Source: an uncultured Ruminococcus sp.
Lineage (GTDB): Bacteria; Bacillota; Clostridia; Oscillospirales; CAG-272
DNA length: 64,000 nucleotides
Direction of reading: 5' to 3'
Assembly (NCBI GenBank): GCA_964463375.1
Contig: CAYXBQ010000005.1
Coordinates: 32,698-96,697 of the forward strand
In this document: positions 1,910 through 42,630 of the stretch, in pieces
How the letters are laid out: each line of letters starts with the position of its first letter
Position numbering within the stretch: position 1 is the stretch's first letter
Made by a program: the position numbers and the translations under genes
The notes under the pieces: generated by a model
Database searches by the model: none
What the model saw: only the letters and a program-made list of their open reading frames with translations
What the model was told of the DNA's origin: nothing

Positions 1910-4039
1910 TTATTTCTGCCGTCCCATTTGGTCGATGGGTAGGTTGGCGAAATCGGGGATGGCCTGGAATACGGGGCTATCCGGGGCAAACTGCCAGGTT
2001 TCCGTATCCAGTCCGGCTTCTGCTGCGGTGGTATACACAGGATTGTTTGCCACGGTGCTATAGGTGTACACCGACTGGGCAATGCGACCCAACCTGCCTT
2101 CCGCATCGATGACAATATTATTTTGTACGCTGCAATAGGTGGGGTTCACGGGGAAGTCCGGGTCGTCGTATTTGTCGAAATCCAAAATGATCTTGGACAG
2201 CAGAGGATACTTTTCCTTCCAGATCCCTTCTGCATAGGGTACGGCCTTCAGGTGCTGCCAATGGGGGGCATCGGGTTTGTTGACGGCTGCTCTTGCCCAA
2301 CCGTCATTCACAAAGCCGTCTCGGTTCCGGTCATCGTAAGAAATGGGCGTACCGCAGTGGATCAGCACATTTTTCTCCACGGTATTCTCTCGACCGCCAC
2401 CGACCAGGAAACCGTTCTTGCCCACGTCGATCAGCAGGTTGCCGTATGCAGTCTGGCCGGAGTGACCGTCGTCCCAGTAAATGCCGTCCGGATGGAATTC
2501 GCCCTGGCCGATCCGCTCTAAACGATTGTAGCGGATCACGCAACCGTTGGCAGCCCAGTCGTATCCGGCATAGATGGCACCGGCATCGCTGGACATGAGC
2601 ACCATGTCGTGGATGTAGTTGTATTCGAGGATATGCTCGTTGCCGCTGTACATGATGGCGGCATGGGGAGAGTTACAGATCTCGCAGTGGTCACAGGTAT
2701 TGCCTACACCGGAGAGGCGTACGCCGGGCTGGTAGGTCTGGTATACCTCGGAAAAATCGTGGATATAGCAATTGGTCACTCGGTTGCCGCCGGGAGTCAA
2801 GGTCTGTCTGTCACCACCGGAGAGGTAGATGCCACCCTTGCCGGTGTGGGTCACTTCGCAGGTGTCCACCAGGTTGTTATTCCCTTCGATGTGCATGGCA
2901 TCTCCGGCGATATTCTTCACCAGAATATTCTGGAAGGTCATATTTTCCCCTCGGCAGGAGATCCCGTCTCCCATGGTACACCGCAGAGTCAGATCCCGGA
3001 AAGTCATGTTGCAGGTGTCTTCACAGGAGAGCAGCGGTCTGTCCTGGCAGTAGAAGTCGATGGTATCGGCGTTTTCGTCGGGGTAGAAATACAGCTTGCC
3101 GGTCTGGCGATCCAGGTACCATTCATATACCGTATCCAGTTCTTCCGGTACGTTGTAGAAGTAGTAGTTCGCACCCGGTCTGGCACCGTAGCGGCTAACG
3201 TACTTCGGGAAGAAGCGGCGGTTGGTGGTGTCCACGGTGATGGGCGTGGAAGAATCGGCCCAGTCCCACATAAAGTAGCCGAATGCCCATGCAGTGGACG
3301 GATCCGCCCAACGGGAAATATAGGCATTTGTCTTACGGTCGATGATGTAGATACCGCCACGATGGTCTTTGCGGTCGCCCCAATCCCGGTAGTAGTTTTG
3401 GGGTGGAAACTCGGCACAGTCGCCTACATCTGCTATGGCATCTAACTTTAGATAGCCTTCGTTGGGATAGCGGGCGATGGTCATGCGATGGTCTCCGCAG
3501 AAGGCTTCACAACGGCTGCCACCGGGTACATCTGTGTATTTACCGGCGGTATGGAAGGCACCGATGGCCTGCATTTCGCCCCAATCGGCATAGGACAGAC
3601 CATAGGCTGTCAGATCCACCATGTATATCTTATTCCGGATCTCCGGAGAAAAGCGAGTTGCCATAGCTTCGTCCGGTGCGCACCATTTGTCTTTTGGGAT
3701 CGTCAAACCGCCATGGAGCACAGCACCCTCTTCCCCCTGCCAGGTGATATGACAAGCTGCGGCGCAATCCTCTTTGGTGAAAACAAAATCGGCGGGCGAA
3801 TAGGTGTCGGCAGGCAGATGGATCGTGATCTGAGCCGAACCATCGGCTACCGAACCATCGGCTGTCGAACCATCGGCTGTCGAACAGTCGACTGTCAAAC
3901 AGTCGGGACTTTTTATCAGCTCCCGCACCATTTTACGGGCTTCCTGGATACTGCCTGTGATTTTGCATGAATCAGAGTCTATTCCTGCAATTTCAGCGGT
4001 ATTCGAGGCGTTTTTTATCCAAATATGCATAAGCTTCAT
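1910..4039 (-). CDS. Right-handed parallel beta-helix repeat protein (glycosidase/lyase-like), no signal peptide
   Basis: 709 aa. Repeated beta-helix turns are visible (NILVKNIAGDAMHIEGNNNLVDTCEVTH, GGIYLSGGD, NRVTNCYIHD, NEHILEYNYIHD, AGAIYAG). SD aaggag lies 7 nt upstream. Confidence 0.7.
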   Translation of the reverse strand: MKLMHIWIKNASNTAEIAGIDSDSCKITGSIQEARKMVRELIKSPDCLTVDCSTADGSTADGSVADGSAQITIHLPADTYSPADFVFTKEDCAAACHITWQGEEGAVLHGGLTIPKDKWCAPDEAMATRFSPEIRNKIYMVDLTAYGLSYADWGEMQAIGAFHTAGKYTDVPGGSRCEAFCGDHRMTIARYPNEGYLKLDAIADVGDCAEFPPQNYYRDWGDRKDHRGGIYIIDRKTNAYISRWADPSTAWAFGYFMWDWADSSTPITVDTTNRRFFPKYVSRYGARPGANYYFYNVPEELDTVYEWYLDRQTGKLYFYPDENADTIDFYCQDRPLLSCEDTCNMTFRDLTLRCTMGDGISCRGENMTFQNILVKNIAGDAMHIEGNNNLVDTCEVTHTGKGGIYLSGGDRQTLTPGGNRVTNCYIHDFSEVYQTYQPGVRLSGVGNTCDHCEICNSPHAAIMYSGNEHILEYNYIHDMVLMSSDAGAIYAGYDWAANGCVIRYNRLERIGQGEFHPDGIYWDDGHSGQTAYGNLLIDVGKNGFLVGGGRENTVEKNVLIHCGTPISYDDRNRDGFVNDGWARAAVNKPDAPHWQHLKAVPYAEGIWKEKYPLLSKIILDFDKYDDPDFPVNPTYCSVQNNIVIDAEGRLGRIAQSVYTYSTVANNPVYTTAAEAGLDTETWQFAPDSPVFQAIPDFANLPIDQMGRQK
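3836..3910. repeat. 15-bp in-frame tandem repeat (about 5 copies) inside the beta-helix gene
   Basis: Copies are cgaaccatcggctac, cgaaccatcggctgt, cgaaccatcggctgt, cgaacagtcgactgt and caaacagtcgggact. On the minus strand they encode ...DCLTVDCSTADGSTADGSVADGS... Confidence 0.9.
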
Positions 4040-4217
4040 TTTCGTGCTCCTTTACCATGAAAAGTGAAAAAACCACAGCTATAGTTTATCATATTTCGCT
4101 GAAAAACGCAAGGGCTATTCCGGATTTTTCGGGATCAATTTCCGGATTCTTCCTTGCAATTTCCATATTGCACAGGAATTTCGGTGTCTGGGTGCTGTAT
4201 TTTGATACTTTTCCATT

Positions 4218-4247
4218 GTTGACAAGGCACCGTCTTATGTAGTATAA
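4218..4247 (+). promoter_or_regulatory. Sigma-A type promoter of the aconitase-icd operon
   Basis: TTGACA, 18-nt spacer, TATAAT (ttgacaaggcaccgtcttatgtagtataat), about 110 nt upstream of the ATG at 4360. Confidence 0.55.
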
Positions 4248-4359
4248 TAAGTGTATATTTTTGTGAATCCTCGCTGCTCTTTTATCGATGGAAAAAAAGA
4301 TTCTGCATAAGTGCAGTTCGTTTCCGTCAAAAGCAGGGGGAATGGAAGGAGAACATAGT

Positions 4360-6291
4360 ATGGGACTGACACTGGCTGAAAAGATCCTGAAAGCCCATGT
4401 GGTGGATGGTGAATTTGTGAAGGGGAAAGAGATCGGTTTGAAGATCGACCAGACCTTGACCCAGGATGCGACGGGTACCATGGCGTATATCGAATTTGAA
4501 GCAATGGGCATCTCGCAGGTAAAGACCGAGCGTTCGGTAGCCTATATCGACCACAACACGTTACAGAACGGATTTGAGAATGCGGATGACCACCGGTTCA
4601 TTGGCTCCTGTGCCAAAAAGCACGGGATCTACTTCTCTCGTCCCGGCAACGGTATCTGCCACCAGGTGCATCTGGAACGGTTCGGCGTGCCCGGGAAGAC
4701 CCTGATCGGCTCTGACAGCCATACGCCTACCGGTGGTGGTCTGGGGATGCTGGCTATGGGTGCCGGCGGATTGGACGTGGCTGTAGCCATGGGCGGCGGT
4801 GCATACTACATCACCTACCCGAAGATCACCAATATCGTTCTCCATGGCAAGCTGCAGGACTGGGTGTCTGCCAAGGACGTGATCTTAGAGGTGCTGCGCC
4901 GGATGACCGTGAAGGGTGGCGTTGGCAAGATCATCGAATACACCGGGGATGGCGTGCAGACACTGAGCGTACCGGAAAGAGCGACCATCACCAATATGGG
5001 TGCTGAACTGGGTGCGTCTACTTCCATCTTCCCTTCTGACGACGTGACTAAGGCCTTCCTGGAAGCACAGGGGCGTGGGGACGTGTGGGTGCCGCTGTCT
5101 GCCGATGCAGATGCTGTATACGATGAGACCATCGAGATCGACCTGTCTGCGCTGGAACCCATGGTTGCCAGACCCCATTCGCCGGACAACGTATGTAAGA
5201 TCACGGAGCTGGGGCGGATGAAGGTAGACCAGGTATGTATCGGTTCCTGCACCAACAGCTCGCTGGCAGACATGATGAAGGTGGCATACATTCTCCGTGG
5301 CAAGACCGTACATCCCGATGTATCGCTGTCCATTGCGCCCGGCTCTAAGCAGGTGCTGACCATGCTGGCGGACAACCATGCCCTGGAAGACATGATCGCT
5401 GCCGGTGCTCGTGTGCTGGAATCTGCCTGCGGTCCCTGCATCGGTATGGGACAGTCTCCCAACTCTGCCGGTATTTCTCTCCGTACCTTCAACCGGAACT
5501 TTGAAGGACGCAGCGGTACCAGAGACGGGCAGATCTATCTGGTGTCTCCCGAAGTGGCTGCGGCTTCTGCCATTTGCGGCTATCTGGCGGATCCTCGTGA
5601 GCTGGGTATTATGCCCCAGATCCCCATGCCGGAGAAGTTTATGATCAACGACAATATGATCGCACTGCCGGCACCGGCTGACGAAGCAGACCAGGTGGAG
5701 ATCCTGCGTGGTCCCAACATCAAGGATTATCCGGCCACCGCACCTCTGGCAGACAGACTGGAATGCCCGGTTTCTCTGAAGGTCGGCGACAACATCACCA
5801 CCGACCATATCATGCCGGCCGGTGCCAAGATCCTGCCCCTGCGTTCCAATATCCCGGCCATCTCGGAGCACTGCTTTACCGTTTGCGATAAGGAATTCCC
5901 CCAAAGAGCCAAGGCACTGGGACAGAGCATCGTAGTTGGCGGCGTGAACTACGGACAGGGTTCGTCCAGAGAACATGCAGCTTTGGCACCGCTGTACCTG
6001 GGGATCAAGGCGGTACTGGTGAAATCCTTTGCCCGGATCCATCGTGCCAATCTGCTGAATGCCGGGATCATGCCCCTGGAATTCGTGAACGAAGGGGACT
6101 ATGACACCATCGATGCCGGAGATACGCTGGTGATCGAAGGACTGCGGGATGCTGTGGCCGATGGCAAGGACATCGTTGTGGTGAACCAGACCAAGGGACA
6201 CACCATTCCTGTAAAGTGCGAGCTGAGCAGCCGGATGCGGGATATTCTGCTGGCCGGTGGGCTGCTGGATTATACAAAGCAAAATGGCTGA
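4360..6291 (+). CDS. acn: Aconitate hydratase
   Basis: MGLTLAEKILKAHV start with SD ggaagga. Fe-S ligand region IGSCTNS and ...ACGPCIGMGQ, swivel domain VVGGVNYGQGSSREHAA. The upstream ATG at 4288 lacks an SD. Confidence 0.9.
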   Translation: MGLTLAEKILKAHVVDGEFVKGKEIGLKIDQTLTQDATGTMAYIEFEAMGISQVKTERSVAYIDHNTLQNGFENADDHRFIGSCAKKHGIYFSRPGNGICHQVHLERFGVPGKTLIGSDSHTPTGGGLGMLAMGAGGLDVAVAMGGGAYYITYPKITNIVLHGKLQDWVSAKDVILEVLRRMTVKGGVGKIIEYTGDGVQTLSVPERATITNMGAELGASTSIFPSDDVTKAFLEAQGRGDVWVPLSADADAVYDETIEIDLSALEPMVARPHSPDNVCKITELGRMKVDQVCIGSCTNSSLADMMKVAYILRGKTVHPDVSLSIAPGSKQVLTMLADNHALEDMIAAGARVLESACGPCIGMGQSPNSAGISLRTFNRNFEGRSGTRDGQIYLVSPEVAAASAICGYLADPRELGIMPQIPMPEKFMINDNMIALPAPADEADQVEILRGPNIKDYPATAPLADRLECPVSLKVGDNITTDHIMPAGAKILPLRSNIPAISEHCFTVCDKEFPQRAKALGQSIVVGGVNYGQGSSREHAALAPLYLGIKAVLVKSFARIHRANLLNAGIMPLEFVNEGDYDTIDAGDTLVIEGLRDAVADGKDIVVVNQTKGHTIPVKCELSSRMRDILLAGGLLDYTKQNG

Positions 6292-6312
6292 GGCCGTGAA
6301 GGAGATATAACT

Positions 6313-7512
6313 ATGGCAAAGATCAAGATGACCACGCCCCTGGTCGAGATGGATGGGGACGAAATGACCCGTGTGCTCTGGAAGATGATCAAGGACATTC
6401 TGCTGGAGCCCTATATTGAACTGAACACCGAATACTACGACCTGGGTCTTCCTTATCGTGACCAGACCAACGACCAGGTGACCATCGATGCGGCGGAAGC
6501 CACCAAGAAATATGGCGTTGCTGTCAAGTGTGCCACCATCACGCCCAATGCGGCCCGTGTGGAAGAATACAATCTGAAGGAAATGTGGAAGTCTCCCAAC
6601 GGTACGATCCGGGCCATTCTGGACGGTACGGTATTCCGTGCGCCCATTTTGGTCAAGGGGATTCAGCCTTACATTCCCACTTGGACCAAGCCCATCACCA
6701 TTGCTCGTCATGCATATGGCGACATTTACAAGAATGTGGAAATGCAGGTGCCGGCCGGATCCAAGTGTGAGCTGGTCTGCACGGACGAGAACGGCAACGA
6801 GACTCGCAAGGTGATCCACCAGTTCGGGCAGTCCGGCGGTATCATCCAGGGTGTACACAATGTGGATGCGTCCATCACTTCCTTTGCACGCTGCTGCTTT
6901 ACCTATGCACTGGACAAGAAGCAGGATCTGTGGTTCGCTGCCAAGGACACCATTTCCAAGACCTACGACCATCGGTTCAAGGATATTTTCGCCGAGGTAT
7001 ACGAAAACGAATTCAAGGCAAAGTTCGAAGAAGCTGGTATCGAATATTTCTACACGCTGATCGACGATGCTGTGGCTCGTGTGGTGCGTTCCGAAGGTGG
7101 GTATATCTGGGCCTGCAAGAACTACGATGGGGACGTGATGAGCGATATGCTGGCAACGGCCTATGGTTCTCTGGCTATGATGACCTCTGTGCTGGTGTCT
7201 CCCGATGGGGTCTACGAATACGAAGCGGCACACGGCACGGTGCAGCGGCACTACTACAAGTATCTCAAGGGTGAGACTACTTCCACCAATTCCGTGGCGA
7301 CTATTTTTGCCTGGTCCGGTGCGCTGCGGAAGCGTGGGGAGCTGGATGGCAACACGGAACTGATGGCATTTGCAGATAAGCTGGAAGCGGCTACCATTCG
7401 CACCATTGAAGAAGGCGTGATGACCGGAGATCTGGCATCCATGTCTACGCTGGACAATGTGCAGAAGGTGGATTCCGAGACCTTCCTGCGGGAGATCGCT
7501 GCCAGACTGTAA
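6313..7512 (+). CDS. icd: NADP-dependent isocitrate dehydrogenase (eukaryote-like homodimeric type)
   Basis: 399 aa. [31 protein letters not shown] and [16 protein letters not shown] motifs. Starts 21 nt after the aconitase stop. Confidence 0.9.
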
Positions 7513-10110: not shown

Positions 10111-12384
10111 ATGAAAGAGTATATTCTGCATTTACAGGCACCGGCTACCGGCTGGGAGGATGGTACCCCGCTTGGCAATGGTGCCCAGGGGATGCTGTTC
10201 TGGGGAGACCCGCTGAAGGAACAGATCACGCTGAACGAAGAGACAATTTGGGCCGGTGGTCCTATGGACACCAAAAAAGACGACTATCGTGCGATCATCG
10301 ATCATGCACGGCAGCTCTTTTTGGAGGGACGGGAATGGGAGATCGATTCTTACATCGATACGGCGGGAGAAGATCTGTTCATGCGGATCCAATCCTATGA
10401 ATACGCCGGCAATCTGTGGATCGAGGATCTGGCTGCTGCCGATTGCACGATCACGGACTATCGACGGGATCTGGATCTTGTTCGGGGGAAAGCAGTGATC
10501 TCCTATCGCAAGAACGGCGTTTTGTACACCAGAGAGGCGTTTTCTTCCCATCCGGCGGGGCTGCAATGCGTGCGGTTCACGTCTGACGAACCTTTCTCGG
10601 TGGCACTGTCTTACACCAGAGAATGCATGGACAAGCTGGATGTACAGGAAGGCTGGCTCGTGGCACACTGCCATACGGCGACTGGGGAAAACAAATTCCG
10701 CACCTGCGTGAAGGTGGAGACCGATGGAACCCAGGTTGTTTGTGGGGATTCTCTGCACATCACGGGGGCAAGCCAGGTGGTCATGTACATCGGGACCTAT
10801 ACGGCATTCCGGCATGATTGTCTGGAATCTGCTTCGGCTGCCGGGATGATGAAGGCGTCTGCCGGATGGGATGCACTGCTGGCAGAACACATTGCGGACT
10901 TCTCTGCCATCATGTCCCGTACGGATATCGATCTGGTACCCCAGGGAGATGCGCTTGCCGATATGCCCATTCCGGAACGGTTGGCACGGCTGAAGGAGGA
11001 CGAAAATGCCACTGATGCGGGGCTGATCTCGCTGTACTATCAGTTCGGGAAGTATCTGCTGGTTTCGTCCAGTAGAGAAGATTCGTTGCCGGCCAATCTG
11101 CAAGGTGTTTGGTCGGAGGGCATGCAGTCGCCCTGGAATGCGGATTACCATACCAATATCAATCTGCAAATGAACTATTGGCATGCCGAGGAAGCCGGAC
11201 TTCCGGAATCGGTGGAGGCACTGTTCACCTATATGAACGACTACCTCCTGCCCGGTGGACAAAAGGTTGCTGCGGAGAATTACCATGCTCGTGGGATGGT
11301 GGTACACCATGTCAGCGATATTTATGGCTTTGCGGCGGCTGCTGACGGTCCTTGGGGAATGTGGCCCATGGGCGGTGCTTGGCTGGCATACCACATGTGG
11401 GAACACTGGCTGTACACGGGGGATGTAGATTTCCTGCGGCATACGGCATACCAGTACATCCGGGAAAGTGCGTTGTTCTTTATGGATATGCTCTTTGACG
11501 ATGGACATGGTAGACTGCTGTCCGGACCTTCTACTTCTCCGGAGAATCGGTTCCTTGTGCAGGACGATAAGGGTGAGGTGCAGTGTGCCTACATCACCAT
11601 GTCGCCTACGATGGACACGGAGATCATTGGTGGTCTGCTGCGGTTCTATGGGGAGACGGAAAAGGTACTGGGCATCCACCCGGACGATGGTGTGACGGCT
11701 GTAGAAATGGCGAACAAGCTGCCGCCGCTTTCGGTGGGCAAGCATGGTCAGCTCATGGAATGGGTGAAGGATTACGACGAGGCAGAACCGGGACACAGAC
11801 ATATCTCCCATGCCTTTGGCCTGTATCCGGCTGCTCAGATCACCAGAGCAACGCCGGAGCTGTACAAGGCGATCCGTGTCACGCTGGACAGACGACTGGC
11901 CTCCGGCGGTGGGCATACCGGTTGGAGCCGGGCTTGGCTGATCAACCTGTTTGCACGTCTGCGGGATGGCGAAGCGGTGTACCAGAATGTGCGGGCACTG
12001 TTCACACGTTCTACCCTGCCCAACCTGTTTGACACCCATCCGCCGTTCCAGATCGATGGGAATTTCGGTGGTGCGGCCGGCATTGGCGAGATGGTGATGC
12101 AGAGCCACGAAGGCTTCATTTCCCTGCTGCCTGCGCTGTCGAAGGAGCTGCACACGGGTTCCTTTACCGGTCTTTGCGCTCGTGGTGGCTATACGGTAGA
12201 TGCGACCTGGAAAGACGGGGGCGTGGTAGCGTTCGCGGTGTCCTCTGCGGATAACAAGGCGGTAACGGTGGAAGTGCCAGTGGCAGATGGTACGGTATAC
12301 AAGGATGCTGCGGGGAAAAAATATGTGGTTTCCGGCGGGAAGGTAGTGCTTAATGGCAATTCTTCGTTGACTATTGACAAATAA
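10111..12384 (+). CDS. Glycoside hydrolase family 95 (alpha-L-fucosidase-like)
   Basis: 757 aa. N-terminus APATGWEDGTPLGNGAQGMLFWGDPLKEQITLNEETIWAGG and LPANLQGVWSEGMQSPWNADYHTNINLQMNYW are GH95 signatures. No signal peptide. Confidence 0.85.
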   Translation: MKEYILHLQAPATGWEDGTPLGNGAQGMLFWGDPLKEQITLNEETIWAGGPMDTKKDDYRAIIDHARQLFLEGREWEIDSYIDTAGEDLFMRIQSYEYAGNLWIEDLAAADCTITDYRRDLDLVRGKAVISYRKNGVLYTREAFSSHPAGLQCVRFTSDEPFSVALSYTRECMDKLDVQEGWLVAHCHTATGENKFRTCVKVETDGTQVVCGDSLHITGASQVVMYIGTYTAFRHDCLESASAAGMMKASAGWDALLAEHIADFSAIMSRTDIDLVPQGDALADMPIPERLARLKEDENATDAGLISLYYQFGKYLLVSSSREDSLPANLQGVWSEGMQSPWNADYHTNINLQMNYWHAEEAGLPESVEALFTYMNDYLLPGGQKVAAENYHARGMVVHHVSDIYGFAAAADGPWGMWPMGGAWLAYHMWEHWLYTGDVDFLRHTAYQYIRESALFFMDMLFDDGHGRLLSGPSTSPENRFLVQDDKGEVQCAYITMSPTMDTEIIGGLLRFYGETEKVLGIHPDDGVTAVEMANKLPPLSVGKHGQLMEWVKDYDEAEPGHRHISHAFGLYPAAQITRATPELYKAIRVTLDRRLASGGGHTGWSRAWLINLFARLRDGEAVYQNVRALFTRSTLPNLFDTHPPFQIDGNFGGAAGIGEMVMQSHEGFISLLPALSKELHTGSFTGLCARGGYTVDATWKDGGVVAFAVSSADNKAVTVEVPVADGTVYKDAAGKKYVVSGGKVVLNGNSSLTIDK

Positions 12385-12394
12385 CAAATGATCA

Positions 12395-12440
12395 AATTGC
12401 GCCTATCTGTGCAAAAAACATAGACAGGCGCAATTTTTTC
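12395..12440 (+). terminator. Terminator after the GH95 gene
   Basis: attgcgcctatctg ... cagacaggcgcaat stem followed by T6. Confidence 0.6.
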
Positions 12441-12542
12441 GATTTTTTATTAAGAAAGTATTGACATATGCGGTGAAAAGTTGTACAATAAGTACAGTGT
12501 ATTGTATTACATGGATTTTACTTTTGGAAAGGTTTTTGTACC

Positions 12543-14042
12543 ATGAAAAAAAGACTATTCACGTTGCTGTTAGCTGCGCTGCTGGTATCCTCTGCGCTTA
12601 CAGCCTGTGGCAATTCCGATGCGGAAAAAACGAACGATACCACAAGCACCAATGTGGCAGATACTACAGCTGCCGTGGAGACTGATGCACTCACCGATTA
12701 TGAACAGCGGCAGTTGATCTCTGACGATCTGCCGGAGAACGATTTTGGTGGGCAGGAATTTCGGGTGCTGACAACGGACCACGATTCCTATAACTCTGTG
12801 ACCTTCGAGATCATCGCCGAGGAGCTGACCGGGGATGCCTGCAACGATGCTGTGTTCAATCGAAATGTGGATATCGGCGAACGATTCAACATGACCATTG
12901 TTGGTATGGCTGAAAAAGAACCCTACAAGCTGGTAAACAATGCGGTCACAGCGGGTACGGATGAATACGATCTAGCCGGGGTGTACAACTTCCAGTCGTA
13001 CTATTTGATCACAGCGCAGAGCCTGCTGAACTGGTTGGAGATCCCGCACGTGAATTTGGAGAAGCCGTGGCACAATGCCCTGTCCAACGATGCCGCAACC
13101 ATCAATGGACGGCTGTACACCATTTGCTCCGACTATGCGATCACCTCTATGACATATACCTATGCTACATTCTTCAATGTGAGAATGTTGACAGACTACG
13201 GTTATCCGGCAGAGGATCTGTATGACATGGTGCGGAATGGCGAATGGACGATCGACAAAATGTCTGAAATGGTCGCCGGTATGTACACCGATACCAATGG
13301 GGATGGCAAGAAGGATGCGGACGACATCTACGGATACGGCTATGAGCTCACGAACCCGGCAGACGTTTGGACCACTGCCTTTGGGGAACATCTTTCCTCC
13401 GTTACGAAAGATAACGATATCGAGATCAACTTTATGACCGACAAGATGGTATCCATTCTGGAAAAGCTGATGGATTTCCACTACAACAACGAAGGTGTAT
13501 ATTTGCCCGCCACGCAGTATGACGAAGAAAAGTACTTCTTGAACGGTAAGTTTGCTATGGCTCCTCTGCGTTTCCACACGGCTTACACGACGCTGCGGGA
13601 AATGGAAGACACCTATTCCATGCTGCCCTACCCCAAGTGGGACGAGGATCAGGATACATATTACACCAATGCAGACGACAAGTTTACCGCCTTTGGTGTA
13701 CCGATGACGGCCTATGGCAATCTGGAGTTTGTGGGTACGATCTATGAAGCCCTGTGTGCGGAAAGCTACAAGAAGGTATATCCGGCGTACTATGACATTG
13801 CGCTGAAGGGCAAGTACTCCTCTGATGCCGGGACTGCGGAAATGGTGGATCTGATCATGGCTGGCCGATACTTTGATTTCTCCTTCCAGTTTGGCGAAAC
13901 GATCTTCCAGAACCTGCCCTACCAGATCCGGAACATGCTCCGTGCCAAGAACACCAATTTGGCCTCTACCTATGATTCTATGGAAAAGAAGCTGTGGACA
14001 CAGATCGATGAAAAGCTCCTGCCTCTGTACGGGATCGAATAA
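12543..14042 (+). CDS. Extracellular solute-binding lipoprotein (ABC sugar-transporter SBP type), no adjacent permease
   Basis: Lipobox LLAALLVSSALTAC|GNS. About 500 aa. Paralogous to 30693-32114 (shared DxYDLxGxYN, PWxxxxxxD, MLPxPKxDxxQDxYYT blocks). A TTGACA/TACAAT promoter lies at about 12462-12490. Confidence 0.75.
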   Translation: MKKRLFTLLLAALLVSSALTACGNSDAEKTNDTTSTNVADTTAAVETDALTDYEQRQLISDDLPENDFGGQEFRVLTTDHDSYNSVTFEIIAEELTGDACNDAVFNRNVDIGERFNMTIVGMAEKEPYKLVNNAVTAGTDEYDLAGVYNFQSYYLITAQSLLNWLEIPHVNLEKPWHNALSNDAATINGRLYTICSDYAITSMTYTYATFFNVRMLTDYGYPAEDLYDMVRNGEWTIDKMSEMVAGMYTDTNGDGKKDADDIYGYGYELTNPADVWTTAFGEHLSSVTKDNDIEINFMTDKMVSILEKLMDFHYNNEGVYLPATQYDEEKYFLNGKFAMAPLRFHTAYTTLREMEDTYSMLPYPKWDEDQDTYYTNADDKFTAFGVPMTAYGNLEFVGTIYEALCAESYKKVYPAYYDIALKGKYSSDAGTAEMVDLIMAGRYFDFSFQFGETIFQNLPYQIRNMLRAKNTNLASTYDSMEKKLWTQIDEKLLPLYGIE

Positions 14043-14163
14043 AACTGCATAAAAAATCATGACCGGGGTCTCTTTAGGCTCCGGTTTTTACGTGGTATAT
14101 CTTGATTTTTGTCGGAAAATATGGTATACTATGGGCGTAATTTATCTTAGGGGAGAAACGAAA

Positions 14164-14433
14164 ATGAAAGCTATCGTTACCGTTGTGGGGTTTGACACCG
14201 TGGGCATTATGGCCAAGGTCAGCACTGTCTGCGCCGAGCACCACGCCAACATCATCGATGTTACCCAGTCCGTGCTGAAGGATATGTTCACCATGGTCAT
14301 GCTCATTGATATTTCGGATTTGACCGAGGATTTTGCCGCATTGCAGCAGGCTCTCTTTACGCTGGGTGACCAGATCGGTATGAAGATCCACGTGATGCAT
14401 GAGGATATTTTCAACTCCATGCACCATATCTGA
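14164..14433 (+). CDS. ACT domain protein (UPF0237 family)
   Basis: [40 protein letters not shown] aggggag. The longer track ORF starting at 14059 has no SD. Confidence 0.8.
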
Positions 14434-14462
14434 GCAGCACATACAGAAAAGGAAGTAAGAAA

Positions 14463-15821
14463 ATGATCAATACAAAAGATATTATGGAAACGATCCGCAT
14501 GATCGAGGACGAGAACCTGGACATTCGGACCATTACCATGGGGCTTTCCCTTCTGGACTGTGCGGACAGCGATATTGATGTGTCCTGTCGGAAGATCTAT
14601 GAAAAAATGACCCGGAAGGCAGAACGTCTGGTACCAGTGGGGGAAGAGATCGAGCGGACCTATGGGATCCCGATCATCAACAAGCGGATCTCGGTTACAC
14701 CGATCGCACTGCTGGCTGCGGTATCCGGCGGGGATCCGGTGAAGTATGCCAAGACTTTGGAAAAGGTGTCCCAGGCTGTGGGCGTGAACTTCATTGGTGG
14801 GTTCAGTGCGTTGGTACACAAGGGCTTTGCGGCCGGTGACCGGGAGCTGATCGCTGCTATTCCGGAAGCACTGGCGGTGACCGATCACGTATGCTCCTCT
14901 GTCAACGTGGGCTCCACCAAGGCGGGGATCAACATGGATGCGGTGCGGCTCATGGGCGAAGCGGTCAAAAAGGCAGCAGAGTTGACCAAGGATCGCAACT
15001 GCATTGGTCCTGCTAAGCTGGTGGTATTCTGCAATGCGCCGGAGGACAATCCCTTTATGGCGGGTGCATTCCATGGGATCGGCGAACCGGACTGCGTGAT
15101 CCATGTGGGCGTATCGGGGCCTGGCGTGGTGCGTTCTGCATTGACCAAGTATCCGGATGCGGACCTTTCGCAGGTGGCAGACGTGATCAAGAAGACGGCA
15201 TTCAAGATCACTCGTATGGGGCAGCTGGTGGGCACAGTGGCTTCGGAGAAGTTGGGTGTTCCCTTTGGTATCGTAGACCTGTCTCTGGCACCGACACCGG
15301 CTGTGGGGGACTCTGTGGCGCATATCTTAGAGGAAATGGGTCTGGAGATCTGCGGTACCCATGGGACGACGGCGGCGCTGGCTCTGTTGAACGATGCAGT
15401 CAAAAAGGGTGGCGTGATGGCATCCTCTCATGTGGGCGGTCTGTCCGGTGCCTTTATCCCGGTTTCGGAAGATGCTGGTATGATCCATGCGGCGCGTATG
15501 GGCGATTTGACCATCGAAAAGCTGGAGGCTATGACAGCAGTTTGCTCGGTGGGGCTGGATATGATCATCATTCCCGGCGAGACAACACCGGCTACCATCT
15601 CTGCTATCATCGCAGACGAAGCGGCTATTGGTATGGTCAATAGCAAGACTACGGCGGTGCGTGTGATCCCGGCTATTGGCAAGCAAATCGGCGAGGAACT
15701 GGAATTCGGCGGGCTGCTGGGCAGTGGTCCCGTGATGCCGCTCCACAACGATCGTTCCAGCCAAAAGTTCATCGATCGTGGCGGACGTATCCCGGCACCG
15801 ATGCAGTCTTTAAAGAACTAA
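14463..15821 (+). CDS. UPF0210 / DUF711 (PFL-like) family protein
   Basis: 452 aa. N-terminus [26 protein letters not shown] is typical of UPF0210. Always paired with the ACT protein in Firmicutes (recalled from memory). Confidence 0.8.
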
Positions 15822-38710: not shown

Positions 38711-39640
38711 TTAGTCCAGCCAGATGGGGTTGGTCCATGCGTGCTTGCCGTCCTTATCGATGATGGTCATGCGCACGTACTTGTAGGGACCTGCCCAGTT
38801 TGCCAGATCGATCTCTGCGTGGGTCATCTTGCCATCGGCAGCGGTGATCTTTCTGGTGGGGTGCATATCGCTGTGCAGACGGATGGCAGCGACTTCCGAG
38901 CAGTCGATCACAGCCTTGCCGTTTTCTACATAGAAATCATAAATTTCCGGGCCGCAGGAGGAGTAGAACTTCCCTTCTTCCAGTGCCTTCAGGATGGCGT
39001 TGATGTTGTTTTCTGCATTGACCATGACCCAGCCCTTGCAGTGGTGGTGCATACCGTGGCCGTCATCGGTGGCTACGCCGTAGATGTGGATGTCCTGACC
39101 CAGCAGCTCGTCCCAGTATGCAGCGTCGGTATCCATATCGTCTTCGATCGCGCAGCCGCTGTTCCAGATCTCCATAGCGAAGTTGCCCTGCAGCTTTTCG
39201 AAGTAGCGAGCGGGGGTGCTGCTCCATTCCGGATGGCAGTAGATGGTCATGTTCTTCTTGGCGTGGATCTCGTCCAGATAGGGCTGGTAGTCTTCCTGAC
39301 CGGTGGTCTTTGCGGAATCCATGCGTTCGTCTTGGTCAAAGCCGTTGCCGTCTTCCTTAGCGGGGCCGATGCAAACGGTGTGGAAGCAACGGAAGCCGTG
39401 GTCGTGGGCAAAGGTGCCGTCGAATTCCATGCCGGGGATGATGGTCATAGGTACTTCTGGTGCGAAGTTGGTGTAGTTATAGTTGCGGTGGTCGGTCAGC
39501 GCCAGGAAGTCATAGCCGTGGTCGTAGTGATAACGGATCACTTCATCGGGTGCGCCGGCGCCGTCGGAACGCTTGGTATGGCAGTGGAGACCGCCCTTGA
39601 GCATTTTTACGTTGCCGCCGAAAGCCTGTTGTCTGATCAT
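38711..39640 (-). CDS. PHP-domain (CehA/McbA-like) metallohydrolase
   Basis: GGLHCHTKRSDGAGAPDEVIRYHYDHGYDFLALTDHRNYN, with later His-rich sites (YCHPEW, TDDGHGMHHH). Confidence 0.7.
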   Translation of the reverse strand: MIRQQAFGGNVKMLKGGLHCHTKRSDGAGAPDEVIRYHYDHGYDFLALTDHRNYNYTNFAPEVPMTIIPGMEFDGTFAHDHGFRCFHTVCIGPAKEDGNGFDQDERMDSAKTTGQEDYQPYLDEIHAKKNMTIYCHPEWSSTPARYFEKLQGNFAMEIWNSGCAIEDDMDTDAAYWDELLGQDIHIYGVATDDGHGMHHHCKGWVMVNAENNINAILKALEEGKFYSSCGPEIYDFYVENGKAVIDCSEVAAIRLHSDMHPTRKITAADGKMTHAEIDLANWAGPYKYVRMTIIDKDGKHAWTNPIWLD

Positions 39641-39813
39641 ATGATAAATACCTCATTTCTGTATACATAGGGCACCTTGCCCTGCTTATGGGTATTATAC
39701 AACCTTTTTGGCAAAATTGCAATAGCTTTTTGGGAAAATGTGGGGTGAAAAATACAGGAAGAACGATGCTGTGGGATTTGGTGATTTAGGCTGGGGAAGG
39801 AATTTTCAAAAGC

Positions 39814-39864
39814 TTGACAAAATACCGTTCCTATGGTAAAATAAGAGTACATAACCATAGGAGG
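39814..39864 (+). promoter_or_regulatory. Cassette A promoter and conserved leader
   Basis: TTGACA (39814-19), 17-nt spacer, TAAAAT (39837-42). The 15 nt AATAAGAGTACATAA are identical to cassette B, followed by the SD taggagg. Confidence 0.6.
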
Positions 39865-39873
39865 TTCGGCAAA

Positions 39874-40068
39874 ATGGAAGGTACAAAAATATACAAAAGA
39901 AAAAAATATGCACAAGTTTCATTGTTAGTGACAAAGGGGGGCAAAGAAAAAATATCGGAAAGAGCAAAAGAATTAGATATTTCTATGACTAAACTTATCA
40001 CTAGAGCTTTAGAAACCCAATACCATCTTGGTCTGATGGAAGAAGAACCGATAAACCAGCCCCGTTGA
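39874..40068 (+). CDS. Ribbon-helix-helix (Arc/CopG-like) DNA-binding protein, cassette A
   Basis: 64 aa. Beta strand AQVSLLV, helix 1 GGKEKISERAKELD, helix 2 ISMTKLITRALETQY. A weak terminator (agccc/gggct plus T5) overlaps the stop. Confidence 0.65.
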   Translation: MEGTKIYKRKKYAQVSLLVTKGGKEKISERAKELDISMTKLITRALETQYHLGLMEEEPINQPR

Positions 40069-40092
40069 GGGCTTTTTCTTTTGGAGGAAATC

Positions 40093-40281
40093 ATGCAATA
40101 CACTACAGATATGTCCATCACCTTCCTGCTGTTGGCTGTCGGCTGTGCTTACATTTCCGGCAGAATTCACTCTGTCCGGCTACACGGCGATGCAACTGTG
40201 CTGAAGCCCGCTCTCATCTTGTTCCTTGCTTTGTTTGTCGCCGGGAATATTGTCGGCATCCACGCACTGCCTACTCTGTGA
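40093..40281 (+). CDS. 62-aa two-TM hydrophobic peptide
   Basis: MQYTTDMSITFLLLAVGCAYISGRIHSVRLHGDATVLKPALILFLALFVAGNIVGIHALPTL. SD ggagga is only 4 nt upstream. Followed by hairpin gagccgtttaggctc plus a T-run. Confidence 0.45.
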   Translation: MQYTTDMSITFLLLAVGCAYISGRIHSVRLHGDATVLKPALILFLALFVAGNIVGIHALPTL

Positions 40282-40625
40282 CCCTTCGAGCCGTTTAGGC
40301 TCTATTTTTATACCCAAAATTAACTTCGAAAGGATTATAATCATGAAAACTTACACTAAGAATCGGCTGGAAGCTACGTTATACTGAAGAACATAGAATT
40401 CCCCCGAATCTGCGGATCGTATTCTCCCGCTGGGGGAATTTCCCATGTCCGAATCCCCATAACTTCCCGGAAGCTTGGGTGAAATTCAAGGACGAAGAAG
40501 TCCAACTCCCACCGAATGCTATAGAGTGTAGAGGCTTCTGCGGAGAATGCGTGCAGAGTGAACACAACTGTTGGGAAATGCGTAAAGGTAACGCCGTCTG
40601 GTTCCATCAACATTGATCATAAGCC

Positions 40626-40676
40626 TTGACAAAACGTCCCCTCTGTGATACAATAAGAGTACATAAACAGAGAGGA
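40626..40676 (+). promoter_or_regulatory. Cassette B promoter and conserved leader
   Basis: TTGACA (40626-31), 17-nt spacer, TACAAT (40649-54), then the same AATAAGAGTACATAA leader and the SD agagagg. Confidence 0.6.
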
Positions 40677-40685
40677 TGTGGTGGA

Positions 40686-40880
40686 ATGGCGTTTGATCAA
40701 AATAAGTACATCGAAGAGTATAAAAAACAAAATTATGATAGGATAAGGATTCAAGTGTATGAGGATAGCCGAAAGAAAATTAAAGAATACGCAATTAAGA
40801 ATAATGTGTCAGTATCCCAGCTCATAATCCGAGCACTTGAAAAGACGTACCTATTAGATCTGACCGGCGATCTCGATTAA
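40686..40880 (+). CDS. Ribbon-helix-helix DNA-binding protein, cassette B
   Basis: 64 aa. YDRIRIQVYEDSRKKIKEYAIKNNVSVSQLIIRALEKTY. Terminator aaagccc/gggcttt plus the shared tail TTTTTCTTTTG. Confidence 0.65.
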   Translation: MAFDQNKYIEEYKKQNYDRIRIQVYEDSRKKIKEYAIKNNVSVSQLIIRALEKTYLLDLTGDLD

Positions 40881-40948
40881 CCTTTACAAAGCCCAACAAC
40901 ATAGGGCTTTTTCTTTTGCCCAAATTTAACTTAAAGGAGAAAATAATC

Positions 40949-41080
40949 ATGACAATAAACAGAAATGGCGAAACCTATAAGCTGACCCCACAGGAGCTGT
41001 TTCAAGCCTACGAAGAACAGAAGCTACTCTTTCTTTTGGATTCATCCACACAAAAATACCGCCAGCGGATCATAGCTTGA
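40949..41080 (+). CDS. 43-aa hypothetical ORF of cassette B
   Basis: My own translation gives MTINRNGETYKLTPQELFQAYEEQKLLFLLDSSTQKYRQRIIA*. SD aaaggaga. The preceding CCCAAAtTTAACTT..AAAGGA..AATCATG block is repeated at 40312-40345 in cassette A. Confidence 0.35.
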   Translation: MTINRNGETYKLTPQELFQAYEEQKLLFLLDSSTQKYRQRIIA

Positions 41081-41106
41081 TCAGCGGACGGTATTTCCCA
41101 TTTCTA

Positions 41107-42630
41107 TTATTTTTCGTAGATCACTTCTACATTCGCCAAAGCTTCGTTCTCTTCCCCAATGGTGATGGCTTGCCAGTCGGCTTCTGTGCCGGGGTAGTAG
41201 ATCTTGGCAAGGCGGGGGCATTCGGAAAAGGCAAATTCATCGATGGCGGTGATGGGAGCCCCAAAGGATACACGCTCCAGGCTATAGCAGCAGCTGAACA
41301 GATAGCTGGGCACCTTGGTGATGCCGCTGCCCAAATGGACGGAACGCAGCGCTGTGCAGCTGTTGAAGGCACGCAGACCGATCTTGGTCACGGTATCCGG
41401 AATGGTGATCTCGGTGAGGGCGTAGCAGTTGATGAAGGTGCGGGGGCCTAAGGTGTGGATGTTTTTCCCGAAATGCACGGTGGTCAGGGCTTCGCAGTTG
41501 TAGAAGGTCTGTTCGCCCAGCACTTCCAGACAGTCGGACAGCGTGACGGTCACCAGATCCTTGCAGTTTAGGAAGAAGTTTTTGTCCAGCTCCCGGACGA
41601 TGATCCCATCCACCATGTCCGGCACCACGAATACCTCCCAGGAGCCGGTGTAGTCATCCTTACGCAGGGAGAGCACGCCGTCCTCGGTGATGGAGTACCA
41701 CGGCTCTTCGGCAGTCGTGGTCAGGTACACCTCTTCCAGACCGGTGAGCATTTGCGCCTTTTGGTAGGTGGCATCGGCGGCTTTGGCTTCGGCATCTCGG
41801 AAGGAACCCAGATCGTTGAAGATGGCGATGGCTTCGTCATAGGCGGCTTCCTCCACCAAAGATGCGGCTTTGCCATACCGGATCGAGGGGATGATCAGGG
41901 TGACAGTTAGGATCGTCAGCAGCAGCGCACCACCGATGGCGGAGAATATGGCGATCATTTTCAGCCGGTCGCTTTCCACCTTGGAGCGCGCCACGTTGGC
42001 CTTTTTGCTATGGGGATTCTTGGCTGCCTCTACATCATGGAGTCGCTTTTCTTCGGTGAGGTATGCTTCGTCAAAGTGCTTCTCCAGCCAGGCGTGTTCG
42101 GTGTGGCAGTGTCCGCAGTGGGTGGCCTCCTGTAAGTTGATCTGCCCACAGGTACAGCGCCACAGCTTGCCATCCTCAATGGTATCGGGACGGAACACCG
42201 GCTGCACCACACCGGCGCATTCCCGACAGATCTGCTCGTACAGGGGATCGGTCTGCCACAGGATCGCCTGCTCCGGCAATGCCACGGGGTCACGGCCTTC
42301 TCGTTCCCACAGGGATCCTTCCCCCTGCCACACCTGCTCTACCCGGCTTTGCACGTACACAGCTTCTGCCGGTGCGGGCACGGTCATATCCTCGGTCAGC
42401 GGCAGTGTCACGGTTTCTGTACCCACAGCGGCACGGCGGGCATCGGTGAACTGGATGGTCAGGCAGCAGCGGAGCGGTGTCTTATCGGTGCAGGGGGTCA
42501 TGTGGATGTGCAGGGTGCGCTTGCCATCTTCTTCGGTGATGGTATTTCTTTTGACTTGTACCGGGCATAGGGGGAGATATTCCTTTTGTTCCCGGTCACT
42601 GATGATCTTTTTTTCCTCTTGCTTTTCCAT
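41107..42630 (-). CDS. Single-pass membrane protein: cytoplasmic zinc-ribbon N-domain, TM, extracellular BspA-type leucine-rich repeats
   Basis: CRECAG...WRCTCGQINLQEATHCGHCH, TM MIAIFSAIGGALLLTILTVTLIIPSI. C-terminal repeats of about 23 aa follow (FLNCKDLVTVTLSDCLEVLGEQTFYNCEALTTVHFGKNIHTLGPRTFINCYALTEITIPDTVTKIGLRAFNSCTALRSVHL...). Confidence 0.75.
   Translation of the reverse strand: MEKQEEKKIISDREQKEYLPLCPVQVKRNTITEEDGKRTLHIHMTPCTDKTPLRCCLTIQFTDARRAAVGTETVTLPLTEDMTVPAPAEAVYVQSRVEQVWQGEGSLWEREGRDPVALPEQAILWQTDPLYEQICRECAGVVQPVFRPDTIEDGKLWRCTCGQINLQEATHCGHCHTEHAWLEKHFDEAYLTEEKRLHDVEAAKNPHSKKANVARSKVESDRLKMIAIFSAIGGALLLTILTVTLIIPSIRYGKAASLVEEAAYDEAIAIFNDLGSFRDAEAKAADATYQKAQMLTGLEEVYLTTTAEEPWYSITEDGVLSLRKDDYTGSWEVFVVPDMVDGIIVRELDKNFFLNCKDLVTVTLSDCLEVLGEQTFYNCEALTTVHFGKNIHTLGPRTFINCYALTEITIPDTVTKIGLRAFNSCTALRSVHLGSGITKVPSYLFSCCYSLERVSFGAPITAIDEFAFSECPRLAKIYYPGTEADWQAITIGEENEALANVEVIYEK

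Follow-up and report, generated by a model that had tools for sequence, protein, structure and literature searches.

A chromosomal mobile-element remnant with two putatively autorepressed ribbon-helix-helix units in an uncultured Ruminococcus

Small autorepressors with a ribbon-helix-helix (RHH) fold are well known from Arc and Mnt (P22), CopG (pMV158) and omega (pSM19035). Here we discuss two genes of this kind, RHH-A and RHH-B, that lie in an AT-rich islet (39804..41045, strand not assigned) of a 64-kb stretch of DNA from an uncultured Ruminococcus sp. (contig CAYXBQ010000005.1). We call the whole 64-kb stretch the window, and all coordinates count from its first letter unless another contig is named. 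Each gene stands in a cassette with its own promoter and terminator, and the two cassettes follow one another in tandem. An earlier note on this DNA listed the parts of the islet (the promoters, a shared 15-mer, the RHH open reading frames (ORFs), a shared terminator tail, a downstream block, a two-transmembrane (TM) ORF and the AT-richness), and all of them are present. A dip in GC, blastn matches to element loci and comparison with a related strain, L021, identify the islet as the chromosomal remnant of a phage-like mobile element, for which a phage-like and a conjugative class are both possible. The best joint explanation, and in our opinion a probable one, is a deletion-made remnant that carries autorepressed RHH units.

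The likeness to Arc, Mnt, CopG and omega lies in proteins of about 45-75 aa with a strand-helix-helix layout, encoded directly behind a strong promoter with repeats that overlap its core. As with omega of pSM19035, several related promoters occur within one element. Unlike these repressors, the window family has an extra N-terminal helix (residues 5-16) and matches no Pfam or NCBIfam model above cut-off, window-type cassettes have no adjacent ant, rep or par genes, and the arms of their candidate operator lie 16-40 nt apart and overlap the Shine-Dalgarno sequence (SD). The R388 plasmid has small autorepressors and shows a transcriptional overshoot on transfer (PMC3937220). The parallel is that of mobile-element operons headed by their own small repressors, for which a burst and then a shut-off would be expected. 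However, the kinetics of R388, a characterised IncW plasmid, have been measured, while the logic of the window is inferred from its anatomy alone, and the window cassettes have a terminator between the repressor and the downstream genes. The islet also resembles cryptic prophage and mobile-element remnants in its truncated genes, its atypical GC and its presence or absence among strains, but unlike typical remnants it is only 1.2 kb long and has kept two intact regulator genes. A last likeness is to the mosaic immunity regions of lambdoid phages, where regulator genes are replaced by distant alleles between conserved flanks. In the lambdoid regions the operators change along with the repressor, whereas the candidate operator of the window lies in the conserved flank. 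The locus is of a kind already known, namely RHH autoregulatory units, here in a mobile-element remnant. Nothing in the islet overturns current understanding, and the locus is fairly ordinary apart from the swapping of its alleles.

The argument for a remnant begins with its intact relatives. In metagenome contigs L001 and L064-L066, the latter three reached through a variant of the TM peptide, some 5 kb separate the two cassettes. All genes are on one strand: DUF3849 is followed by cassette A, the TM peptide gene and an 88-aa gene, and after about 4-5 kb of small genes come GP88, cassette B and a 92-aa gene. Three parts of the islet match L001 by blastn. The promoter and leader of cassette A (39813-39873) match 863-923 at 95%; terminator A and the start of the TM gene (40060-40142) match 1150-1233, also at 95%; and the 3' part of GP88, cassette B and the 5' part of the 92-aa gene (40380-41040) match 5694-6355 at 88.8%.

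The genes at the junctions are cut short. The 14-aa ORF at 40343-40387 is homologous to the 88-aa gene in its first 10 codons only (MKTYTKNRLE); the full-length gene in L064 and L066 begins MKIYTKNRLESQ. This truncated 5' end and its ribosome-binding site (RBS) block, CCCAAAATTAACTT..AAAGGA..ATG, occupy 40315..40387 (+). Next comes the 3' fragment of GP88 (PF17338), a truncated pseudogene at 40386..40616 (+) that retains residues 132-207 of 207 and is 96% identical to the GP88 protein of L001, which Pfam recognizes at 2.8e-27. The 45-aa ORF at 40479-40616 sits in this GP88 frame, which is open from 40386. Behind cassette B, a second RBS block (CCCAAATTTAACTT..AGGAG..ATG) and the truncated 92-aa gene occupy 40919..41080 (+). 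The first 30 codons of its 43-aa ORF (40949-41080) are identical to the L001 gene, and from about 41041 the sequence is that of the host.

The two cassettes were joined by one internal deletion of about 5 kb, which starts at about codon 11 of the 88-aa gene, extends to codon 131 of GP88 and has its junction at about 40374-40386. A truncation on the right, at about codon 30 of the 92-aa gene, gave the layout its final form. These two events account for both the tandem layout and the micro-ORFs. The earlier note saw the tandem arrangement as a unit and the locus as possibly an autonomous small regulatory one; the first is not supported, the cassettes of intact relatives being about 5 kb apart, and neither is the second. 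Its micro-ORFs do exist, but they are the truncated 5' ends of longer element genes, and the first starts at 40343 rather than 40344. Its other suggestion, a decayed fragment of a plasmid or of an integrative and conjugative element, is borne out by the homology to a longer element of phage-like or conjugative class. Homology to a longer element with truncated junction genes is here combined with polymorphism among strains and atypical composition, which together mark a mobile-element remnant. The window cassettes show no consistent selection; they may be left-overs whose expression persists. We believe this explains an odd tandem-cassette locus and cautions against reading design into remnants.

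As to the parent element, phages and conjugative elements typically have small DUF3849, DpnD/PcfM and SprT-like genes arrayed in their early or establishment regions. The contigs with close relatives of RHH-B carry one-directional small-gene arrays (DUF3849, DpnD-PcfM, GP88, RHH, 92-aa, 178-aa, with DUF6273 downstream), and a third variant of the array reads GP88, RHH, SprT-like, 92-aa. GP88 relatives occur in 80 IMG/VR contigs of 6.5-215 kb and in the uncultured gut phage MT835544. The closest is L073, from a 73-kb viral IMG/VR contig, whose GP88 is 71% identical and which carries an RHH family cassette of the same architecture. MT835544, whose GP88 is 42% identical, has no RHH gene beside GP88, and its apparent sharing of a 353-aa gene proved to be a coincidence. 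About 40 element proteins compared with PHROGs, Pfam and PADLOC returned only GP88, DUF3849, DpnD-PcfM, DUF6273, SprT-like, MazF/PemK, ParB-like and sigma-factor matches, and no phage or conjugation hallmark. Neither the islet DNA nor an RHH protein had a match in PLSDB or INPHARED, a search of IMG/VR with the RHH alignment found no relatives, and the GTDB genomes gave one irrelevant partial match in a deltaproteobacterial metagenome-assembled genome. The JGI metagenomes gave three loci, of which only L054 was informative. A literature search on DUF3849 and PcfM gave nothing relevant, and a 26.8-kb relative contig ends after a 402-aa protein. Two contigs deserve mention for what surrounds their arrays. 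At 10753-12328 of L017 a MazF/PemK-like toxin gene and a 353-aa gene stand where the array ends, with a host-like ArgR gene directly after them, and this may be a junction between element and host. In L054, from a 53-kb metagenome contig, the cassette is found near a sigma-factor gene and an 879-aa phrog_8308 protein (2008-5336, 11864-14967), and also near proteins that match segments of giant methyltransferase-type polyvalent proteins.

Comparison of strains places the islet between two host genes, a PHP-domain gene on its left (38711-39640, -) and an LRR_5 gene on its right (41107-42630, -). Its right edge is at 41041-41049 and its left edge somewhere within 39723-39812, and its GC is 0.35-0.48 against 0.54-0.59 in the flanks. 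Five metagenome contigs (L011-L015) carry the islet identically. In L021 (assembly GCA_964623635.1) the LRR and PHP genes are 297 nt apart, and only about 85 nt are kept: window 39804-39844, which is promoter A up to its -10 element, then 44 unmatched nt, with host sequence resuming at 41050. A fully empty site was not found among the strains compared, since even L021 keeps promoter A. Those 44 nt without a window counterpart (6582-6625 of L021, -) contain an inverted repeat, GTATGGG..CCCATAC, right after promoter A, which may still drive a short transcript there. In L024-L026 the same two junctions enclose different contents: cassette A holds another allele, of 65 aa, and cassette B a third RHH allele that is frameshifted in an A9 run. 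This broken RHH-B allele, at 6840-6990 of L025 (-) and equivalent to window ~40686-40880, may owe its frameshift to an artefact of sequencing or to a phase-variable tract. The earlier note had named a universally conserved core locus as the finding that would speak against it; the islet is polymorphic in both presence and content.

It is important to realize how unevenly these strains differ. Between the window and L025 identity is 0.97-1.0 in host DNA, 0.85-0.97 in the islet outside the RHH genes and 0.40-0.62 in both RHH genes. Sliding identity among the B cassettes of the window, L025 and L001, and in the alignment of cassette A, gives the same picture, with flanks at 0.9-1.0 and RHH cores at 0.40-0.67. 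The alignments indicate that the RHH coding core has been swapped for distant alleles between strains and elements while its flanks were conserved. The idea of a modular recombining element, offered in the earlier note, is upheld in this sense: promoter, leader and terminator are 90-100% identical between strains and elements, and the RHH cores 40-60%. Because the TM gene reaches a dS of ~0.45 between near-identical host flanks, segments of the islet must have been replaced by recombination with other element lineages rather than have diverged in place. This exchange of the repressor core, which leaves the flanks conserved and occurs even where the chromosomal site is fixed, is a neat case in nature of a cassette-like regulator swap.

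Both proteins are members of a large RHH subfamily that has no name. RHH-A (39874..40068, +; 64 aa) is a divergent allele that a family profile recognizes at 4e-21 by hmmsearch; 5 codons are missing from its N-terminal end, and at the C-terminus it matches the L066 allele. RHH-B (40686..40880, +; 64 aa) is a typical member, with N-terminus MAFDQNKY and C-terminus SQLIIRALEKTYLLDL. The two are 38% identical over 48 aa (E=5e-10). No curated Pfam or NCBIfam model matches them as RHH above cut-off; RHH_1 scores 13 bits where 20.5 are needed, and the NikA-like model 15.9 where 27 are needed. The matches below threshold are to NikA-like, CopG antitoxin, RHH_1, DUF6364, RelB, MobA and TraJ models, and any one curated model is touched by 1-8 of 50 relatives, always below cut-off. 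A word-indexed search found 8 clusters for RHH-B and for RHH-A only itself. An exhaustive profile search found 1275 family representatives at E<=1e-3, of which 74 also pass E<=1e-10, and the source databases call all of them just "hypothetical protein". The family consensus is MAFDxxxYxxxYxKxNYDxIxxxVPKGxxxxxKxxAxxxGxSVxQLIIxALExxYxLDLS. We believe that uncovering this subfamily, with members behind near-consensus promoters in mobile elements of gut metagenomes, is of interest in itself.

Its fold is supported by both profile and model. Against the PDB the family profile matches AvtR (2e-4) and AmrZ (7e-3), and also CopG, Arc, VapB26 and Mnt. An AlphaFold2 model of RHH-B (pLDDT 90) has a first helix (residues 5-16), then an extended segment (17-27) and two further helices (28-38 and 43-55). 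The Foldseek matches of this model are ParG at the top, then AtaR, Arc, AmrZ and CopG, several at rmsd 1.0-1.3 A over ~38 residues; over all matches rmsd is 1.0-2.3 A and TM score 0.5-0.6, with E-values >0.6 for a protein that is very small. The predicted structure supports an RHH fold, with the strand-helix-helix core of the superfamily and an additional N-terminal helix. Two observations on the profile itself should be added. Its top PDB sequence matches are helical repeat proteins designed de novo, each of them matched weakly and many times over; these are an artefact of composition and could mislead automated annotation. Proteins P0041 (2134 aa) and P0115 (288 aa) contain 8 and 4 separate stretches that match the profile, and these may be repeated RHH-like modules or an artefact of low complexity.

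Both cassettes are built in the same order: a near-consensus promoter with an extended -10 element, a leader of ~25-30 nt, the RHH gene, a weak terminator and then the RBS of the next gene. Promoter A (39814..39842, +) is TTGACA-17-TAAAAT and promoter B (40626..40654, +) is TTGACA-17-TACAAT; each has the TG of an extended -10 and 11 of 12 consensus positions, and they are the best promoter-like sites of the region. Promoter A is also kept in L025 and L066. The promoter scan found no promoter-like site between the terminators and the genes that follow them. Terminator A (40058..40083, +) is intrinsic, with a 5-bp GC stem, the stop codon in its loop and the tail TTTTTCTTTTG. Terminator B (40888..40918, +) has a 7-bp stem, AAAGCCC/GGGCTTT, and the tail TTCTTTTG (-9.1 kcal/mol, z -2.1). 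The terminator hairpins are short, at about -6 to -9 kcal/mol, and a 16-nt tail, AGGGCTTTTTCTTTTG, has the same letters at 40068 and 40903. The CCCAAA..AATCATG block downstream is a 54-nt repeat at 40296 and 40902 with 70% identity. The 15-mer AATAAGAGTACATAA occurs exactly twice in 64 kb, at 39840-39854 and 40652-40666, where chance would give 0.05 matches with 2 mismatches permitted.

The cassettes have in common their promoter, first codons, terminator tail and downstream RBS block; they are paralogues within one mobile element. Their repeats stem from common descent, and chance and convergence do not account for them. A promoter, an inverted repeat across its -10, an RHH gene and a terminator come together in each of the independent sequence types A, B, L017, L054 and L073. 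The promoter consensus alone is not diagnostic, because a pattern scan of IMG/VR gave 27 matches, every one a generic strong promoter from an unrelated phage and none with an RHH gene. Within the 15-mer, the 3 bases between the -10 and TACATAA (39845-39847 and 40657-40659) are GAG in both window cassettes and are replaced in every other cassette seen (GTG, AGG, TAG, GGC, AGC or GGA), so the exact 15-nt identity is specific to the window strain. It may reflect conversion between the two window cassettes. Natural RHH tandems do occur in other elements: L071 (412-858) and L072 (696-1142) each have two RHH family genes (64 and 69 aa) in true tandem, and these, being 43 nt apart behind a single promoter, are unlike the deletion-made pair of the window.

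Each promoter is overlapped by an inverted repeat. That of cassette A (39829..39862, +) has arms TCCTATGGT (39829-39837), in the promoter spacer, and ACCATAGGA (39854-39862), at the SD; it flanks the -10/+1 region and the 15-mer, its right arm overlaps the SD GGAGG (39860-39864), and as a hairpin it folds at -17 kcal/mol (z -2.6). That of cassette B (40640..40675, +) has arms CCTCTGT (40640-40646) and ACAGAGAGG (40667-40675), flanks the -10 and the 15-mer there, and folds at -18.5 kcal/mol (z -2.1) with its right arm forming the SD region. The arms differ by type: CTCTGT(G) / (C)ACAGAG in type B, CCTCG..GTGGT / ACCACGAGG in L017, CAGCCT / AGGCTG in L054 and TGCGCCC / GGGCGCA in L057. The more distant types L069 and L071 have other palindromes that overlap the promoter, for example GTGTTATA-ATGG-TATAACAC across the -10. 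The inverted repeat, which flanks the -10 in most cassette types, is plausibly an autoregulatory operator, as the earlier note suggested.

On this reading a cassette would be a negative-feedback transcription unit, composed of a strong promoter, a short leader with a small RHH repressor gene, and a weak terminator. The repressor would bind the inverted repeat, roughly from -21 to +14, and shut off its own promoter. A leaky terminator would let a fraction of the transcripts pass into the promoterless block of genes downstream. On entry into a naive cell the element would produce a burst of early-gene expression and then fall silent. A hint of operator recognition comes from position 21 of the beta-strand, which tracks arm type: it is R or K in 4/4 B-type alleles and S in 3/4 A-type alleles, L017 and L073. 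The inner arms of this second group resemble one another: A-type and L017 have (A/G)TGGT..ACCA(T/C), and L073 has GTGG..CCAC, which is shorter. Position 21 is the only one that does so, and a clean covariation of beta-strand and operator was rejected.

Several findings weigh against the joint explanation. As to the element, no capsid, terminase, relaxase, type IV secretion system or integrase gene is found in the element DNA examined (up to 20 kb). As to the operator, the same arms occur with very different A-type beta-strands (QVSLLVT, DISILLP, GISIRVK and TDILLP), and the near-identical strands GISIRVK and EISIRIK are paired with different arms. The arms are spaced by 16, 19-20, 26 or ~40 nt and some stems are bulged, so a nucleic-acid hairpin fits better than a rigid protein site. 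L069 and L071 have no pairing from spacer to SD at all.

These points lead to the most serious rival, in which the repeat acts mainly as an RNA hairpin. Read-through transcripts would hide the RBS of the RHH gene in the stem, and transcripts from the cassette's own promoter would start in the loop, so that RHH would be translated only from these and the feedback would be insulated. The hairpin is the minimum free energy structure in 5 sequence-distinct types (A, B, L017, L054 and L057), at -16.5 to -23.9 kcal/mol (z -2.1 to -3.7), and the SD is paired in 5/5 of them, while the leaders made from the own promoter fold weakly (-5.4 and -9.8 kcal/mol). The arms vary by type and stay complementary, loop lengths vary and bulges occur, and the arms do not follow most residues of the beta-strand. 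Moreover, the upstream DUF3849 and GP88 genes end ~25 nt before the -35 with no terminator between. On the other hand, with a leader of 25-30 nt any palindrome centred on -10/+1 overlaps the SD anyway, L069 and L071 have instead of this pairing the promoter-internal palindromes typical of operators, and the read-through transcripts are hypothetical. We regard the hairpin as a somewhat doubtful main role that has to be taken seriously, and it does not exclude an autorepressor since the two can coexist. A single-strand promoter of the Frpo type was rejected, as the stem is no longer than 6-13 bp and includes neither the -35 nor the -10. Whichever is right, the inverted repeat that links spacer and SD is a small regulatory design open to test.

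Returning to the autorepressed units, one might go further and suppose that the RHH genes are exchangeable specificity cassettes, with promoter/leader and terminator arms serving as recombination handles by which immunity or incompatibility is re-sorted, and with the hairpin from spacer to SD limiting the repressor to self-promoted transcripts. We think this unlikely. If it were true, the remnant in the chromosome would itself take an active part, be it as a reservoir of alleles or as a defence against incoming relatives. A second rival makes the defence its whole point: the immunity would be domesticated, the orphan RHH proteins would silence matching promoters of incoming relatives, and the swapping of alleles would be an arms race. 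Both RHH ORFs and both promoters are indeed intact in the window strain. Alleles at a fixed site have been replaced with the junctions kept, which shows repeated recombination with incoming relatives, and the TM gene has a dS of ~0.45 between strains whose host flanks are 97-100% identical. But RHH-B is frameshifted in the L024-L026 strain, L021 has lost nearly everything, and the locus also keeps obviously dead fragments. This scenario seems to us distinctly improbable.

A third rival takes its lead from the 62-aa two-TM peptide gene (40093..40281, +), whose SD, GGAGG, directly abuts the tail of terminator A and which has its own intrinsic terminator on its 3' side (40288..40312, +; -9.2 kcal/mol, z -3.6). 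RHH-A would then be the antitoxin or repressor of a toxic peptide, in a toxin-antitoxin or abortive infection system. A small hydrophobic peptide encoded behind an RHH gene invites this reading, which the earlier note had raised. The gene is real and under purifying selection, since its dN/dS is 0.03-0.09 at dS ~0.45, the two host-resident copies compared included; its 90% cluster has 7 variants, and the gene is present in the intact elements L064-L068. In addition, L064, which is without the RHH gene, has also lost the -35. Nevertheless, neither Pfam, NCBIfam nor PADLOC gives a toxin or antitoxin match above threshold, and the peptide has no match there at all. A terminator separates RHH-A from the peptide gene, and the two genes are lost independently: L001 has kept RHH and has a truncated TM gene, whereas L064, where we read the sequence, has an intact TM gene with RHH deleted in frame, and L065, L067 and L068 have kept the TM gene and, going by their gene tables only, show the same short gap. 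Cassette B, L017, L054 and L073 have no peptide gene. No toxin family, a terminator between the genes and independent loss do not describe a type II toxin-antitoxin system. Nor does the peptide resemble a type I toxin or holin by family, antisense RNA or lysis context, with no Rfam match in the islet and no endolysin among the small neighbour genes. The evidence makes such a system very unlikely here. The remains of RHH in L064 (2205-2334) are a 15-codon stub (MAFGLMKEEPVNQPR) with the -35 also gone and the TM gene intact downstream.

The weakest rival, a plasmid housekeeping role (CopG copy control, ParG/omega partition or a MobC/NikA relaxosome), has sub-threshold NikA-like, CopG antitoxin, MobA and TraJ matches and a top Foldseek match to ParG in its favour, but with no rep, parA or relaxase gene beside any cassette in L001-L019, L054 and L064-L073, and no match in PLSDB for DNA or protein, we give it hardly any credence.

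A few minor features remain. No Rfam family was found in the window as a whole. An inverted repeat at 41054..41096 (-), with 19-nt arms that are 84% complementary, is the terminator of the host LRR gene and is common to L021; it is the host side of the right junction and provides the tail of the 43-aa ORF. A 15-nt direct repeat, 87% identical, joins the GP88 fragment (GGAATTTCCCATGTC, 40435-40449) to the host just beyond the right junction (GGTATTTCCCATTTC, 41090-41104), and CTTTTTCTTTTGGA at 40072 is similar to CTCTTTCTTTTGGA at that junction (41027). Both may be microhomologies that were used in the rearrangements.

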